Positions 35,051-39,639 of a stretch of DNA of 51,458 nt are shown here, in pieces (within the stretch, counting starts at the first letter, position 1; every line of letters starts with the position of its first letter). The DNA is from an uncultured Dehalococcoidales bacterium (GTDB lineage Bacteria; Chloroflexota; Dehalococcoidia; Dehalococcoidales; UBA2162). A program made the translations under genes and the position numbers. Where the stretch lies: contig CAYNFT010000002.1 of the NCBI GenBank assembly GCA_964396535.1, forward strand, positions 1 through 51,458, read 5' to 3'. Under the pieces are notes generated by a model. That model made no database searches, was not told the origin of the DNA, and saw nothing but the letters and a program-made list of their open reading frames with translations.

Positions 35051-35083
35051 TCGGGGCGAGAGGATTTGAACCTCCGACCTCAG
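35051..35083 (-). pseudogene. 3' piece of a disrupted tRNA-Pro(CGG) gene (variable loop, T arm, acceptor 3' strand)
   Basis: The minus strand reads CTG AGGTC GGAGG TTCAAAT CCTCT CGCCCCG A. Its acceptor strand pairs with the CGGGGCG of the 5' pieces at 39528-39639, not with the CGGGGTG of the intact tRNA. Confidence 0.75.
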
Positions 35084-35127
35084 GGAGCAGATAAATACTC
35101 CCTGCCCTGTGTAAAGACCATCCTCCC

Positions 35128-36259
35128 TTATCTCCAAGGGTCTACTTCTACCATGCTCTTCAGGCTAAAATCCCCGCCTGCTACGAAGTAAATCATACCT
35201 TCTCCAGCTATTATAATATTGATTTGTGAGGGAGAGCGAAACCGTTTTATCACAGTGTTGCCAGACATTGATAGACGCTCCCGTACAGCCTTCTGAGCCT
35301 GCTGACCTTCCTGAGTCGGAGGGGAAAGTTCAAGGTGCGGTATAGTGAAAGTCTGTACCATATCACTATCCAGCCATTCCTGAACTGTCATACTGCTATT
35401 CTCATAAACAAATTGCCTGAATTGCTCCTTGGTAGTAAAACCGAAGTCTTCCTCGAGCATTTTCGCAGAAAGAGGAGTCAGGAGCACCAGGGCACCACCT
35501 TCGGGTTCTGCATTATCCAGTACCTTCAGGGTGAAATCGGCCACGTTGTAGCCGCACCGCTGACGCAAGCCCCTTCCTTCCCATATGCTGACCACACTGT
35601 CTTCTCGGTTAAAGCCCTTCTCTACATGAAAAGGCTCCCAGGGTATCATAGGGTTATCCACATTCTCGGCAAAGGTCAGACTGTTGTACTGCAGGTTATT
35701 GCCCCAATCACCCATTATCGTGATACCAGGAATTGCGTAGCACAAACAGCGCCCCATCAGTTGCCAGGCCCGTCCAATAGTGGCGTTGGCATGATTGTAA
35801 GGACCCATACAGCCATATCCGGATTCCATACCTATCTCTTTTGCTATTGGTCCGTGAACGACTGCCGCACCGGTGAATGATTGTGCTGAGCTGAAATACG
35901 GGGGTCCTTTCGAGGCCAGACCAAGGAGTACCGGGAGATACTCAGGCTTACACCCCGCCATCACGGTGATAGTGGCAACCTTCTCCACGGTAATATTCTG
36001 TCCCTCACGCTGACCATTGTCTGTCATACCCATCCTGAAGGCTTCTGCCACTATCTCGTCAGGGCGATGGCTGGTTCCTGTCAACATCCTCTTAACATTT
36101 TCCTCCGTGGGAATTACTATTGGTAAGCCGTCAGTCATTTTGTTGTCGAGGAAGTACTGCTGTACTTCATCGTAGGTACCTGGCCATGGGGTTCAGTACA
36201 TTTGTGTAGACCCTTTCTTTCTCAGCGACTGTTGGATTGTAGGAGTTTTTTGATTTCAT
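35128..36259 (-). pseudogene. conserved-looking hypothetical gene with a single-nucleotide frameshift near 36187-36192
   Basis: The tracked ORF 35128-36138 (MTDGLPIVIPTEENV...) stays open upstream as TPWPGTYDEVQQYFLDNK. A well-initiated ORF (GGAGGAGAAAAG ATG at 36259: MKSKNSYNPTVAEKERVYTNVLNP...) runs into it in another frame at the run AACCCCATGG. Confidence 0.55.
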
Positions 36260-36289
36260 CTTTTCTCCTCCTTTTTGACTAAAATATAT

Positions 36290-36311
36290 GCCCCGCAGCT
36301 TGCTGCGGGGC
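36290..36311 (-). terminator. GC-rich hairpin terminator
   Basis: GCCCCGCAGC-tt-GCTGCGGGGC, a 10-bp perfect stem. On the minus strand it is followed by ATATATTTT. Confidence 0.6.
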
Positions 36312-36325
36312 ACCGCTGACCGGCC

Positions 36326-36595
36326 CTACTCAAACATTATCACATTGCGTAGTGCTTCTCCCTTTTCTGTAGACTCAATTGCCTCGTTAATGCGTTCCAG
36401 AGGATAGCGACCAGTGATAAGCTCATCCAACTTGAGGCGTCCCTCCCGGTAAAGCTCCACAAGATGGGGAATATCTATATTCAGCCGGGGTGACCCTCCG
36501 CCACAACTAGTAAGTACTCTCTCACCCCCAACGAAGTCAAACGCTGAAAAGCTTATACTCTCTTTGATTGGTACCAGGCCGATTATGACTGTCAC
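36326..36595 (-). pseudogene. C-terminal remnant of a zinc-type (MDR) alcohol dehydrogenase
   Basis: Only about 89 codons remain: VIIGLVP...FDFVGGERVLTSCGGGSPRLNIDIPHLVELYREGRLKLDELITGRYPLERINEAIESTEKGEALRNVIMFE. This matches the ADH C-terminal consensus. The catalytic and Rossmann domains are absent. Confidence 0.65.
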
Positions 36596-36598
36596 TAT

Positions 36599-36618
36599 TA
36601 AACGAACATCGGGATGTC
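36599..36618. repeat. direct repeat DR1 flanking the catalase segment
   Basis: TAAACGAACATCGGGATGTC, 19/20 identical to 38380-38399 in the same orientation. Confidence 0.8.
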
Positions 36619-36750
36619 TGTCCAGTCATGAGTATAAATATTCGATACCGTTCGGATTTTCAGTTCAATTAAGGTAATTACTGACTTTCTCTATATTTAT
36701 GCGGTAATAAAAACGTATCTCTTGCCGTGCTTTATTAATTTAATTCCGGT

Positions 36751-38259: not shown

Positions 38260-38349
38260 TTCAATCCTCCTTTTCAGGGAATTTTTATCTGAAGTAAGGT
38301 GTTCGGGTATTTTGGGAGGACAATAGTGTATTATATTAACATTGTATTG

Positions 38350-38532
38350 TCAATAATGAATCGAGTAGCAAGCTACCACTAAACGAACATGGGGATGTCG
38401 ACATGACCTTAAGAGTGAAAAGATATTCTTCTCATTCGAAATCAATTTCACATTCTGAGTAATCGTTACCTTCATCGGGCAAGCTTTGTGACCAACTCCC
38501 CGGTGGAAATTAGATTTACCATCAGATTCCAT
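38350..38532 (-). pseudogene. possible internal remnant of the same or a related alcohol dehydrogenase (weak)
   Basis: 60 codons. SDGKSNFHRGVGH...VTITQNVKLIS loosely resembles the DG.SRF...H...YTVV.E..V.KI segment of class III-like ADHs. It ends in ...RHPHVRLVV, encoded by DR2; compare RHPDVRLIV, encoded by DR1. Confidence 0.25.
38380..38399. repeat. direct repeat DR2 flanking the catalase segment
   Basis: TAAACGAACATGGGGATGTC, partner of 36599-36618, 1781 nt apart. Confidence 0.8.
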
Positions 38533-38618
38533 AGTTTTGACAATTAGCCTATGATGGTCTTCCCCTTTCTTGGATGATTCGTCTAAAAGTAGGGTTTTTT
38601 CTTACACTCCCATGTCGT

Positions 38619-39296
38619 TTACGCAATCTCCTCCCGCTGTTTCAGAAAAATCTCAAGACGTGGATTGACTGCCAGCATGTGTTGCCGAACCCTAGACAAT
38701 AGGCTCTTCTTGTCATGCATCTTGTAGATGTGTTCGGGAAACGGCCAATTTACAAAGTCCGTTGCGCCGCTTTTTCGGATAAGTTCTTTCCATGCTGGGG
38801 CCTCATCTGTAACAGATGCTACACGCTTCCGAACGGACTCCGGCGGATCGCCGCGTCTCTCACAGTTCTCTTTTGTCTTTTCCTGTAACTCAGCCCAATT
38901 CTCCATCTCGGTGATGCGGCGTAGCGTAGGATTGAGGACTATAATTTCCGTTTCGCCAAAAGCTGTCGCTACATCTGCAACTGCAAGGGAAGAAAGAAGG
39001 ATGGGTGCGTACACCTCAGTCTTAGCGAGATCGCCTTGAAGACCACTGAAGATAATGCCTTGCCATTCTCCGCGCACAGTGAAGAAGAGTACCTTTCCTT
39101 TGGGGGACCATTCGACTCGTTCTTTCCAGTAGCAGGGGATTTCTTGAACTGTATCTCCGAGCGTACGAAGCATAGATTGAAGATCGTCGCGAAATTTAGG
39201 CGGAGCATACAGCTTATCATCATGGTCGCGAGGGCCGTCTTCGCGCAAACGGTAGGAATCAAGTTTTACCAAGTCGTCCCTCAGTAGGGCAGACAA
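38619..39296 (-). CDS. hypothetical protein (start uncertain, possibly truncated)
   Basis: 225 aa. The tracked start is a TTG directly after an in-frame TGA, with no visible RBS. I recognise no motif. Confidence 0.45.
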   Translation of the reverse strand: MSALLRDDLVKLDSYRLREDGPRDHDDKLYAPPKFRDDLQSMLRTLGDTVQEIPCYWKERVEWSPKGKVLFFTVRGEWQGIIFSGLQGDLAKTEVYAPILLSSLAVADVATAFGETEIIVLNPTLRRITEMENWAELQEKTKENCERRGDPPESVRKRVASVTDEAPAWKELIRKSGATDFVNWPFPEHIYKMHDKKSLLSRVRQHMLAVNPRLEIFLKQREEIA

Positions 39297-39404
39297 AGGG
39301 CTTCATTGACATTGAGTTAGCCCAATTCTAAAATGAACACTAGAGGAGGCAAGAGTGTTAGCGCTATGAGGCACAGGGGCAAATATGATTCGAGATATTG
39401 AAGA

Positions 39405-39482
39405 TGGTCGGGGTGAGAGGACTTGAACCTCCGAACCTCTGCGTCCCGAACGCAGCGCTCTACCCAACTGAGCTACACCCCG
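39405..39482 (-). tRNA. tRNA-Pro (anticodon CGG), CCA encoded
   Basis: The minus strand reads CGGGGTG TA GCTC AGTTGGGTA GAGC G CTGCG TTCGGGA CGCAG AGGTTC GGAGG TTCAAGT CCTCT CACCCCG ACCA. The C1-G72 pair and GGAGG/CCTCT T stem are as in bacterial tRNA-Pro. The variable loop appears to be 6 nt. Confidence 0.85.
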
Positions 39483-39527
39483 ATTATTAAATTATTGGCT
39501 TGAATTTTTATTCCATAATATCAACTT

Positions 39528-39571
39528 CAGTGTCCCGAACGTGGCGCGCTACCCAACTGCGCTACGCCCCG
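39528..39571 (-). pseudogene. truncated tRNA-Pro(CGG) 5' piece, copy B
   Basis: CGGGGCG TA GCGC AGTTGGGTA GCGC G CCACG TTCGGGA CACTG, then non-tRNA sequence AAGTTGATATTATGG. The anticodon stem is degenerate. Confidence 0.75.
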
Positions 39572-39595
39572 ACTTTTATGCTATAATATCAACCG

Positions 39596-39639
39596 CAGCG
39601 TCCCGAACGCTGCGCGCTATCCAACTGCGCTACGCCCCG
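39596..39639 (-). pseudogene. truncated tRNA-Pro(CGG) 5' piece, copy A
   Basis: CGGGGCG TA GCGC AGTTGGATA GCGC G CAGCG TTCGGGA CGCTG, then CGGTTGATATTATAG. It sits 68 nt from copy B. Confidence 0.8.

Follow-up and report, generated by a model that had tools for sequence, protein, structure and literature searches.

The question raised by this locus is how one tRNA-Pro(CGG) gene came to lie in two parts, kilobases away from each other, with a complete gene of the same anticodon between them. The window is a stretch of 51,458 nucleotides from an uncultured Dehalococcoidales bacterium. A sequence-only reading had placed four tRNA pieces on its minus strand, at 39639-39596, 39571-39528, 39482-39405 and 35083-35051, and all four are there. 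It saw in them a tRNA gene broken open by a decayed integrative island. We compared the locus with other loci, designated by L numbers. We argue that recombination at the anticodon loop has repeatedly swapped in a cassette made of a promoter and a tRNA and stranded the old 5' parts. This account is probable rather than secure.

Arrangement of the locus

The flanks of the site are conserved. On the 5' side is the divergent gene apgM, a cofactor-independent phosphoglycerate mutase (39921-41111, plus strand; Pfam, synteny in more than 20 loci), whose presumed start is Met29 of a long ORF. On the 3' side is mazG (33224-34000, plus strand; Pfam and synteny). All the tRNA pieces are on the minus strand. 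Read from the apgM side, that strand begins with the native promoter of the ancestral tRNA-Pro(CGG) at 39648-39676, where TTGCTG, 17 nt, TATAAT and an 8-nt leader can be read directly. Fragment A (39601-39639) is nt 1-39 of the resident C-type tRNA-Pro(CGG). It has the acceptor 5' strand, the D arm, the anticodon-stem 5' strand CAGCG and the loop TTCGGGA, and it matches the native gene of L045/46, the nearest relatives, outside the D loop. A constant joint, CGCTGCGG, and a short promoter segment, TTGATATTATAGCATAAAAGT, occupy 39572-39600. Fragment B (39533-39571) is nt 1-39 of a different tRNA-Pro(CGG) allele with the anticodon-stem 5' strand CCACG, as comparison with L034, L026 and L042 indicates. 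A second constant joint, CACTGAAG, and a long promoter segment, TTGATA...TAATAAT, lie at 39483-39532 and have homologous segments in L004, L034 and L040. They stand 5' of the intact T-type tRNA-Pro(CGG) at 39405-39482, which encodes its CCA (ARAGORN; Rfam RF00005, 63.8 bits). When ARAGORN and Rfam are run on the whole window this is the only tRNA-Pro(CGG) called, in agreement with the single intact gene that had been read by eye.

The 3' piece (35051-35083) is nt 41-73 of the resident C-type gene, by its sequence and its pairing with A. It consists of the CTG of the anticodon stem, the variable loop, the T arm, the acceptor 3' strand and A73, and the native trailer CTTTT comes after it. The two parts of the resident gene are thus separated by 4.55 kb, made up of fragment B, the promoter-equipped T-type tRNA-Pro(CGG)-CCA and 4.3 kb of cargo. 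Relative to the intact tRNA the 5' fragments are upstream and the 3' fragment is downstream, in direct orientation throughout. On either side of the insert stand CTGCGGT and CTGAGGT, identical at 6 of 7 positions. The left copy is part of the constant post-loop segment, which is also present in loci that have no insert.

The resident gene and its empty site

Fragment A and the 3' piece make one gene. Joined through their shared CTG they are called by ARAGORN as a canonical tRNA-Pro(cgg), and the minimum-energy fold is a cloverleaf (-34.4 kcal/mol), so the canonical tRNA that had been reconstructed on paper stands. The length of the overlap does not. The 5' fragments are tRNA-like to about nt 47 (CGCTG-NGG-T), which means the overlap with the 3' piece is 7 nt (CTGAGGT / CTGCGGT) and not the 3 nt of CTG. 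The acceptor strand of the 3' piece, CGCCCCG, pairs with CGGGGCG. Covariation ties the 3' piece to A (C6-G, CAG-CTG) and to the L045/46 native gene; against that gene it shows T-stem substitutions alone, and all pairs survive them, one as G-U. Its trailer is identical to the L045/46 trailer. BLAST of the pieces against related tRNAs gives E-values from 1e-5 to 1e-26, and judged by such sequence similarity their likeness to tRNA is far beyond chance. Fragment B joined to the 3' piece gets no tRNA call from ARAGORN and is not a canonical tRNA-Pro(CGG).

In Dehalococcoidales relatives, the two closest long-contig lineages among them, the stretch from mazG to apgM, next to dnaA, contains a single tRNA-Pro(CGG). 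An uninterrupted promoter, single tRNA and mazG are found in L045/46, L041, L048, L009-13 and L020, and the native promoter of the window (cttgct..aaatcc.c.TATAAT) is also 5' of the uninterrupted tRNA in L009-L013, L045/46 and L048. The uninterrupted gene at this site in relatives marks the intervening 4.55 kb of the window as an insertion. The apgM side retains the resident promoter and nt 1-39, and the mazG side retains nt 41-73 and the trailer. This bears out the claim that a resident CGGGGCG-type gene was interrupted. In relatives the distance from the end of mazG to the tRNA is 12-380 nt. The window has a DUF6941, putative antitoxin and ParE toxin module here (34077-35047, plus strand; Pfam), and no such module is present between mazG and the tRNA 3' end in relatives.

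A probable joint at the anticodon loop

The break had been placed at nt 43/44 of the resident tRNA. The other loci argue otherwise. The junction type of A and B is common to at least 11 other distinct Dehalococcoidales loci, giving a set of 15 junctions at 12 distinct loci, all of which share the constant joint. Each starts with the 5' part of a tRNA, up to and including the anticodon loop TTCGGGA; C(G/A)CTG-ANG and a TTGATA promoter segment come next, and a complete tRNA-Pro(CGG) closes the series. The anticodon-stem 5' strand occurs in seven versions, and the post-loop sequence behind it (CGCTG/CACTG-ANG-TTGATA) is constant for every tRNA allele. The anticodon stem pairs 5/5 in only 2 of the 15 junctions and is broken in the other 13. 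With one post-loop sequence behind 7 different 5' strands, the likely position of the joint is the anticodon loop and not nt 43/44. In L028 the fragment equals the full tRNA over 39 nt and diverges directly past the loop. The left joints of all 15 junctions point to the anticodon loop, and what follows the loop would have come with the incoming DNA.

The joint with its promoter segment has 2 matches in the window against 0 expected, and the GTTGATATTAT motif found 3' of both A and B is the start of this conserved segment, present at many other loci. Most loci with the long form have TTGATA, 17-18 nt and a TAnnnT-like hexamer. The spacing from 5' fragment to intact tRNA is 21-44 nt. All 14 full-length fragments have intact D stems and resemble present functional alleles. 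Fragments stand in arrays in L025, L027 and L040b, and the units are near-identical within each array. The double site of L040 runs from native promoter to 5' fragment, full tRNA, 3.8 kb, a fragment array and a second full tRNA. The units of L026 and L042 are similar, with about 5 differences in 47 fragment positions. L026 also has a full tRNA 20 nt from mazG that is chimeric: its 5' acceptor strand is CGGGGTG and its 3' strand is CGCCCCG, which fits its own upstream fragment. In the other fragment-bearing loci the available downstream sequence contained no lone 3' fragment, and we found the junction on no free element or viral contig.

Fragment B and the intact tRNA

Fragment B had been described as a slightly decayed duplicate of A, and this cannot be kept. 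Over the first 32 nt B is identical to the fragment at the native site of L034. The CCACG strand of B recurs in the functional tRNAs of L026 and L042, where it forms a CCACG/CGTGG stem, and does not pair with the 3' piece. The T-type tRNA of the window is 95-97% identical to those of L004, L034 and L040. It is self-consistent in every stem and is an allele distinct from the resident C-type; A and the 3' piece pair with each other and not with it. In the apgM tree the fragment-bearing loci are scattered. The closest relatives of the window are uninterrupted, and the distant L034/L004 clade is where B and the T-type tRNA find their matches. B is a different allele that most likely arrived along with the intact tRNA. 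The T-type tRNA is the working gene of the locus. That the inserted DNA brought a replacement tRNA-Pro(CGG), complete and of another allele, was thus read correctly, as was the view that stacked 5' fragments reflect repeated events at the site.

The cargo

The island is a patchwork of a catalase and three truncated chromosomal genes, all on the minus strand. The catalase (36751-38259; Pfam PF00199, E = 3.5e-196) is the sole clearly intact cargo gene. A 225-aa ORF (38619-39296) is a copy from a rare P-loop protein family by comparison with its homologues, which are 242-258 aa and start MxKxTLIIVGPGGVGKG; its own N-terminus is degenerate, the P-loop is missing and Pfam gives no match. The C-terminal remnant at 36326-36595 looks like a zinc-type alcohol dehydrogenase when its translation is judged by eye, and has no Pfam match in the ORF or six-frame scan. 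A 5'-truncated UGSC-family gene copy (35128-36180) ends 44 nt before the 3' piece. Its homologues have 82-89% identity and about 448 aa, and lie in ordinary chromosomal contexts with no tRNA nearby. DNA homology to L049/L050 spans only 36180 to 35128, so about 98 codons of the gene are missing.

Pfam scans of the window island, over ORFs and in six frames outside the catalase, found no integrase, transposase or remnant of one, just as no recombinase had been recognised by eye. None was found in the 2.5-10 kb downstream of the tRNA in L001, L004, L015, L028, L032, L040 and L042-44, or in the one L027 downstream ORF scanned. Of the marks of a transposon or IS, an inverted repeat pairing the two insert ends and a transposase domain are both absent. 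Of the "decayed integrative island" the insertion with a replacement tRNA holds up; "decayed integrative" is still interpretation, with no integrase or remnant in Pfam scans here or in the islands of the eight related lineages with examined flanks.

How the arrangement may have arisen

We propose that the incoming DNA would consist of the post-loop 8 nt, a promoter and a whole tRNA, with cargo optional, and would recombine with the resident gene at the 7-nt anticodon loop. The resident 5' part would be left stranded behind its own promoter and the decoding of CCG would pass to the incoming tRNA. Every later event would strike the tRNA that is intact at that time, and 5' fragments would pile up, older ones further upstream than younger ones. 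Recombination between tRNA repeats would usually remove the cargo and the displaced 3' part, and the chimeric tRNA of L026 may be a trace of this; in the window the 3' part would have survived. An L034-like donor probably supplied B, its promoter segment and the T-type tRNA together. On this account the fragments would be scars with no function, and the recombinase could either have been lost or work in trans. The right junction needs a further step. It begins at nt 41 and lacks the loop, and upstream of the 3' piece there is no remnant of a tRNA 5' part, loop or promoter segment. Because the 3' piece starts beside unrelated DNA, a minimum of one additional deletion or illegitimate join has to be assumed. 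The 7-nt anticodon loop is the classic crossover site of anticodon-centred tyrosine integrases. Among tDNA crossover sites it is also the commonest, and a 5' fragment is displaced in 159 of 3919 mapped islands (PMC4383910).

One can imagine that no dedicated recombinase ever existed. A single ancient accident would have fused a tRNA cut down to nt 1-47 with the promoter belonging to a second tRNA-Pro(CGG), and the block of fragment, promoter and tRNA would then have been exchanged among Dehalococcoidales through tRNA, apgM and mazG homology; unequal crossing-over and gene conversion would make the hybrids and arrays. Much of the pattern could come from homologous recombination between tRNA repeats, without a site-specific enzyme. 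No recombinase was found at any locus examined, and near-identical array units would be expected from unequal crossing-over. Homologous recombination made the chimeric 3' end of the L026 tRNA, the likeness of the L026 and L042 units is compatible with vertical descent, and promoter function can account for the conservation of the promoter segment. This is a serious contender that we still judge unlikely. Seven 5' strands on one post-loop sequence would take repeated crossovers in a stretch of about 7-12 nt where a 39-nt homology runs out. The post-loop CGCTG-ANG is functionless in a dead fragment, yet it is conserved where the apgM proteins are only 60-75% identical. The intact D stems and the functional-allele look of the 14 fragments imply that they are young, and therefore that events are frequent.

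Three other explanations fare much worse than the loop recombination we favor. In a classical 3'-fragment island the T-type tRNA would be the regenerated target, with a host 5' part and an island 3' part, 35051-35083 would be the displaced host 3' end and the upstream 5' fragments would be unrelated older scars. A tDNA, an island and a co-oriented 3' fragment are the commonest configuration (3760 of 3919 islands; PMC4383910), and the T arm and acceptor of the T-type tRNA and the 3' piece are identical at 26 of 28 positions. However, a tRNA consistent in all its stems is not a hybrid, the T-type 5' part joined to the 3' piece has a T-T mismatch in the anticodon stem and loses the cloverleaf fold, the 3' piece co-varies with A and the L045/46 gene instead, and the window scans found no integrase. 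This makes the classical island very unlikely. Less likely still is a chimeric assembly at the repeated tRNA sequence of a metagenome-derived contig. A metagenome assembly is the probable source, and there is no record elsewhere of the window's own proteins, but the order of 5' fragment, promoter and T-type tRNA recurs in independent assemblies (L004, L034, L040), the exact repeats shared by the tRNA copies are about 12 nt and too short to mislead an assembler, both flanks are syntenic with relatives, and the junction at 35084 has no repeat. The least credible scenario is a functional split tRNA of the Nanoarchaeota kind, with each half transcribed on its own and the two then assembled or ligated in trans. 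The perfect cloverleaf of A and the 3' piece and the native promoter kept by A speak for it, and RtcB and archease are present in the related genome L048. So does the 14-nt complementarity TAAAAGTCGGGGCG / CGCCCCGACTTTTA in the window: the B leader could pair with the 3'-piece trailer and lengthen the acceptor helix by 7 bp, as had been noticed. The complementarity exists, but the two heptamers of this extension are explained by independently conserved motifs, the promoter-segment end (AAAAGT) and the native trailer (CTTTT), and B, which bears the leader, does not form the anticodon stem with the 3' piece. What trails the 5' halves shows no complementarity to what leads into the 3' half (RNAduplex energies do not beat those of shuffles), promoter prediction gives no site directly before the 3' piece, most junctions have a broken anticodon stem, and an intact tRNA-Pro(CGG) is at hand. 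The low rank already given to this alternative was right.

Comparison with known systems

The split tRNAs of Nanoarchaeum equitans and Caldivirga are broken at 37/38 or other intron positions, have complementary leaders and trailers for trans-splicing and are not known to have an intact paralogue. The window resembles them in having 5' and 3' halves kilobases apart that jointly give a canonical cloverleaf. It differs in lacking such a break position and such a leader and trailer, and in having the intact paralogue. pSAM2 of Streptomyces and phage 16-3 of Rhizobium target tRNA-Pro genes, with identity blocks from the anticodon loop onward. Their attP holds the 3' part and a hybrid gene is regenerated, Int and Xis are encoded, and neither a separate complete tRNA nor a 5' fragment is known from them.

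The high-plasticity-region islands of Dehalococcoides mccartyi are from the same bacterial class. They too occupy tRNA or tmRNA hot spots near oriC, and arrays of repeated gene fragments mark successive integrations (PMC2764846, PMC3146451). There, 3' fragments (20-58 bp direct repeats) lie downstream of tRNA-Ala, tRNA-Arg or ssrA with linked recombinase genes (PMC2764846, PMC3146451), whereas here 5' fragments stack upstream of tRNA-Pro(CGG) and no recombinase was found.

The 5'-fragment subclass of tyrosine-integrase tDNA islands catalogued by Islander (PMC4383910) shares much with the window. A tRNA gene is the target, and the left joints point to the 7-nt anticodon loop, where the stem forms an inverted repeat on either side. 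A displaced 5' fragment stays upstream in direct orientation, repeated events stack fragments, relatives have an empty site and the downstream cargo is variable. Among the things that Islander looks for, an intact tDNA with a cognate displaced fragment in direct orientation and an allowed configuration is present in the window. There are differences. No integrase was found at any locus examined here. The 5' fragment and the intact tRNA are 21-44 nt apart with no island between them, and the cargo is downstream of the intact tRNA. The working tRNA is a complete foreign gene with its own promoter, not a regenerated hybrid of host and island, and the window retains both the 5' and the 3' relics of the old gene.

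Interruption and replacement of the resident tRNA gene

The tRNA pieces described in the sequence-only reading are all found at the locus, and all read on the minus strand. A sigma-70-type promoter (TTGCTG, 17 nt, TATAAT; 39676-39648) precedes fragment A (39639-39601), which is nt 1-39 of a tRNA-Pro(CGG) and ends with the loop TTCGGGA. Next come CGCTGCGG then TTGATATTATAGCATAAAAGT (39600-39572), fragment B (39571-39533), CACTGAAG then TTGATA...TAATAAT (39532-39483), and an intact tRNA-Pro(CGG) with encoded CCA (39482-39405). The 3' piece, CTGAGGTCGGAGGTTCAAATCCTCTCGCCCCGA followed by CTTTT, lies 4.3 kb past the intact tRNA (35083-35051). 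The intact gene is the sole tRNA call at the locus (63.8 bits; ARAGORN, Rfam). When A is joined to the 3' piece, as had been proposed, ARAGORN calls a tRNA-Pro(CGG) and the sequence folds into a cloverleaf. B joined to the 3' piece gives neither a tRNA-Pro call nor a cloverleaf with the same tools, and the 5' part of the intact tRNA joined to it gives no tRNA call or cloverleaf either. Rfam scores for the lone fragments are sub-threshold, which is expected for halves.

Related loci show what the site looked like before. By its flanking genes the organism belongs to Chloroflexota and is Dehalococcoidales-like. The best relatives of apgM are 60-76% identical, and the gene order is conserved: obg, dnaA, fmt, mazG, tRNA-Pro(CGG) on the opposite strand, apgM, aspartokinase, a TPR gene and gyrA. 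Since this order includes dnaA, the tRNA site adjoins the replication origin. In the window obg, dnaA and fmt (29113-33201) are directly beside the locus, which puts this tRNA hot spot next to the chromosomal origin. The loci L009-13, L020, L041, L045/46 and L048 have one tRNA-Pro(CGG) between mazG and apgM, ending 12-380 nt from mazG, and their promoter is the one that precedes fragment A. L045/46 and L041, which carry the uninterrupted gene, are two of the closest long-contig lineages (apgM 75% identical). The L045/46 gene has the acceptor 5' strand CGGGGCG (C-type), the anticodon stem CAGCG/CGCTG and the trailer CTTTT. Together A and the 3' piece show these features, so the ancestral gene is present in these two pieces and all of the DNA between them is an insertion. 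The resident gene was thus interrupted, as first suggested, and its place has been taken by a complete foreign allele that has a promoter of its own. This allele is T-type (CGGGGTG), and the idea that the insert brought a replacement tRNA also holds.

A further 1 kb with DUF6941, antitoxin and ParE genes (34077-35047) is inserted between the tRNA 3' end and mazG. Only 3 nt separate the ParE stop codon from the tRNA end. We take an R-like AT-rich motif at ~34020-34045 for the extended -10 promoter that serves the DUF6941 operon on the opposite strand. The divergent intergenic region has a perfect palindrome, TCCCCTTCCCCTTA-A-TAAGGGGAAGGGGA (39865-39893), between the tRNA promoter and apgM, flagged as terminator-like. 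L045/L046 have a similar one at the corresponding position, so the palindrome is conserved in this region.

Fragment B had been read as a decayed copy of A, and this does not stand. Its first 32 nt are those of the native-site fragment of L034, and its anticodon-stem strand CCACG is that of working tRNAs in L026 and L042. L004, L034 and L040 also have the T-type tRNA and its promoter segment, at 95-97% identity. The DNA past the T-type tRNA differs in every genome beyond ~5 nt, and the island proteins of the window have no homologue in the first set of related loci compared. Fragment-bearing loci are scattered across the apgM tree. The window groups with L045 and L041, which have a single gene, and with L042; L034 and L004 are together in another clade. 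This placement argues for a horizontal origin of the block made of B, promoter and T-type tRNA. Its acquisition from an L034-like donor is the most likely explanation.

A recurrent junction at the anticodon loop

The arrangement is not peculiar to the window. L004 is a distant genome with the same layout: native promoter, 5' fragment, GTTGATATTATAGCATAAA... and T-type tRNA. A metagenome scan with the junction pattern gave 16 loci, 12 of them real, and L042-44 add a variant that the pattern missed. The layout is constant across 15 junctions at 12 distinct loci. A tRNA 5' part that includes the anticodon loop is followed by C(G/A)CTG-ANG, then by an AT-rich TTGATA... segment of 21-44 nt, and then by a complete tRNA-Pro(CGG) or a further fragment. 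The window, L025, L027 and L040 have arrays of two or three fragments. The long segment, in most loci that carry it, holds a sigma-70 promoter (TTGATA, 17-18 nt, TAnnnT-like hexamer) 3-14 nt upstream of the tRNA. The short one holds TGaTATTAT or TGaTATAAT, an extended -10. L027 has three stacked 5' fragments (2230-2800); the oldest is 5'-truncated and its loop is mutated, and the other two, which are younger, hardly differ from each other. That locus does not adjoin apgM and has a DDE transposase gene downstream (303-2000).

The fragments have seven different anticodon-stem 5' strands (CAGCG, CCACG, CCGTG, CTGTG, CTTGG, CTGCG, CCGCG). The pentamer after the loop is CGCTG or CACTG in essentially all junctions, and a 5-bp anticodon stem is possible in only 2 of the 15. 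In L028 the fragment equals the full tRNA over 39 nt and splits from it right after the loop (CGCTGAGG-TTGATA vs CCAAGAGG-TCGGCA). The 8 nt after the loop and the segment that follows therefore do not come from the local tRNA; they arrive with the incoming DNA. This places the hybrid joint at or within the 7-nt loop, and not at nt 43/44 where the break was originally put. The junction type is recurrent.

Content of the island

The island is a patchwork. Next to the intact tRNA is a 225-aa ORF (38619-39350) from a very rare family of P-loop proteins, with 5 homologues found. The homologues start with the P-loop, which is degenerate here with an in-frame stop. An intact catalase is recognized by Pfam, and a remnant without Pfam support looks like the C-terminal end of a zinc-type alcohol dehydrogenase. 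The catalase gene lies between two direct copies of a 25-nt repeat that are 88% identical (36594-36618 and 38375-38399), and the downstream copy is inside the putative dehydrogenase remnant. This points to insertion of the catalase into dehydrogenase fragments, or between them. A homologue of UGSC-family (seleno)proteins (35128-36180) lacks ~98 N-terminal codons; full-length homologues in L049 and L050 are 448 aa, 82-89% identical, in a CoA-transferase/thiolase neighborhood. The right end of the island reads ..TATCTGCTCC. We considered the cargo as a coherent mobile element and rejected this, since the chromosomal surroundings of homologues of the UGSC protein and the 225-aa ORF are ordinary and contain no tRNA, and three island genes are truncated. 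The GC profile that had been suggested as a check is not distinctive (0.41-0.53 inside vs 0.40-0.57 outside).

The 3' piece begins at nt 41, right after 44 nt of unrelated DNA. Relics of the loop, the 5' part or the promoter segment were sought upstream of it, and none scored above shuffles. Pfam searches of ORFs from the island and seven related loci, along with a six-frame scan, found no integrase, transposase or remnant of one, in agreement with the sequence-only reading. Viral contigs had no match to the junction, the T-type tRNA or the promoter-tRNA joint, and the plasmid database had none for the region. A look-up of the window's own proteins in public assemblies, aimed at the same strain or at evidence other than reads, gave no record.

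Mechanism and alternatives

We argue that recombination in the anticodon loop would fuse the resident 5' part to a unit made up of the 8 post-loop nt, a promoter and a whole tRNA, with or without cargo. Further events would strike whichever tRNA was then intact, and this would stack the fragments. The anticodon loop is the commonest crossover site of tDNA islands, and the 5' fragment is displaced in ~4% of mapped islands (PMC4383910). The flanking tRNA repeats would then usually recombine and so eliminate the displaced 3' part and the cargo. This step is supported by two loci. The full tRNA of L026 (219-295), 20 nt from mazG, pairs the 5' acceptor CGGGGTG with the 3' strand CGCCCCG through a T-G wobble. 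That 3' strand matches the CGGGGCG of its own upstream fragment, so this tRNA is a chimera recombined within its 3' part. L040 (3950-8110) has two full tRNA-Pro(CGG) of different alleles 3.9 kb apart, each preceded by fragments, and is the leading candidate for an insertion of this junction family that is still bracketed. A beta-helix protein gene and an fn3 protein gene lie between the two. The 3' part of the resident gene in the window did survive, but without its loop, which requires an extra deletion or an illegitimate join. Defense-type genes (SIR2_2-domain protein, DUF3800) are right downstream of the replaced tRNA in L028 (10434-12140) and L032 (1008-1940), so the site behaves as a variable island hot spot.

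One can ask whether homologous recombination alone produced the junctions. It fits the lack of a recombinase and the near-identical units within arrays. However, it struggles to explain why seven 5' strands are fused to a single post-loop sequence that is conserved yet functionless, and why all of the fragments look young, with D stems intact in 14 of 14 full-length ones. A classical island that leaves a 3' fragment fails, because covariation contradicts it. A functional split tRNA had already been ranked unlikely and also fails. The halves do not have the required complementarity and an intact isoacceptor is present. The 7-bp acceptor extension, which the ParE stop codon helps to form, combines two motifs that are each conserved independently. 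As background for the RNA-ligation idea only, archease and RtcB RNA ligase genes are adjacent in L048 (7987-9875). An assembly chimera is unlikely given the synteny of the locus and the recurrence of its left half in independent assemblies.

A bolder scenario, which we consider improbable, is a dedicated Dehalococcoidales system for replacing tRNA alleles. A cassette of ~130-150 bp (8 post-loop nt, promoter, whole tRNA-Pro(CGG)) would target the resident anticodon loop through a recombinase encoded elsewhere or of unrecognized type. Turnover would be fast, with stranded 5' parts still live-looking. Toxins or phage nucleases that target tRNA might drive it, which is conceivable since most of the differences between alleles are in the anticodon stem; or the promoter-proximal 5' fragments might act as functional tRNA-half RNAs.

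Comparison with known tRNA-targeted islands

Integration into tRNA genes is textbook biology; as a rule, an element that splits such a gene also rebuilds it and encodes an integrase of its own. In this case the old gene has been given up, its role has passed to a complete foreign allele that comes with a promoter, and stacked 5' fragments are what remains as a scar. This recurs across an uncultivated, environmentally important bacterial order with no recombinase linked to it. An enzymatic joint would mean that the anticodon loop of tRNA-Pro(CGG) is the target of an unknown or trans-acting recombinase. Otherwise the case shows that short tRNA homology alone can drive horizontal allele replacement and island growth beside the replication origin. 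Island finders are built on a model with an integrase and a regenerated tDNA, and neither such 5' fragments nor islands on the downstream side of an intact tRNA match it. No paper among those searched describes this fragment-promoter-whole-tRNA architecture.

Among known kinds, the nearest is a tRNA-gene-targeted island that crosses over in the anticodon loop and displaces a 5' fragment. Origin-side islands of Dehalococcoides, a genus of the same bacterial class, leave 3' fragments of tRNA-Ala, tRNA-Arg or ssrA and linked recombinases (PMC2764846). The high-plasticity regions of that genus are an origin-side hot spot, as is the tRNA locus of the window. Unlike tRNA-targeted islands, the locus shows no integrase and no regeneration of a hybrid gene; it has instead a complete, promoter-equipped replacement tRNA, separated from the fragment by a spacer that is only promoter-length.
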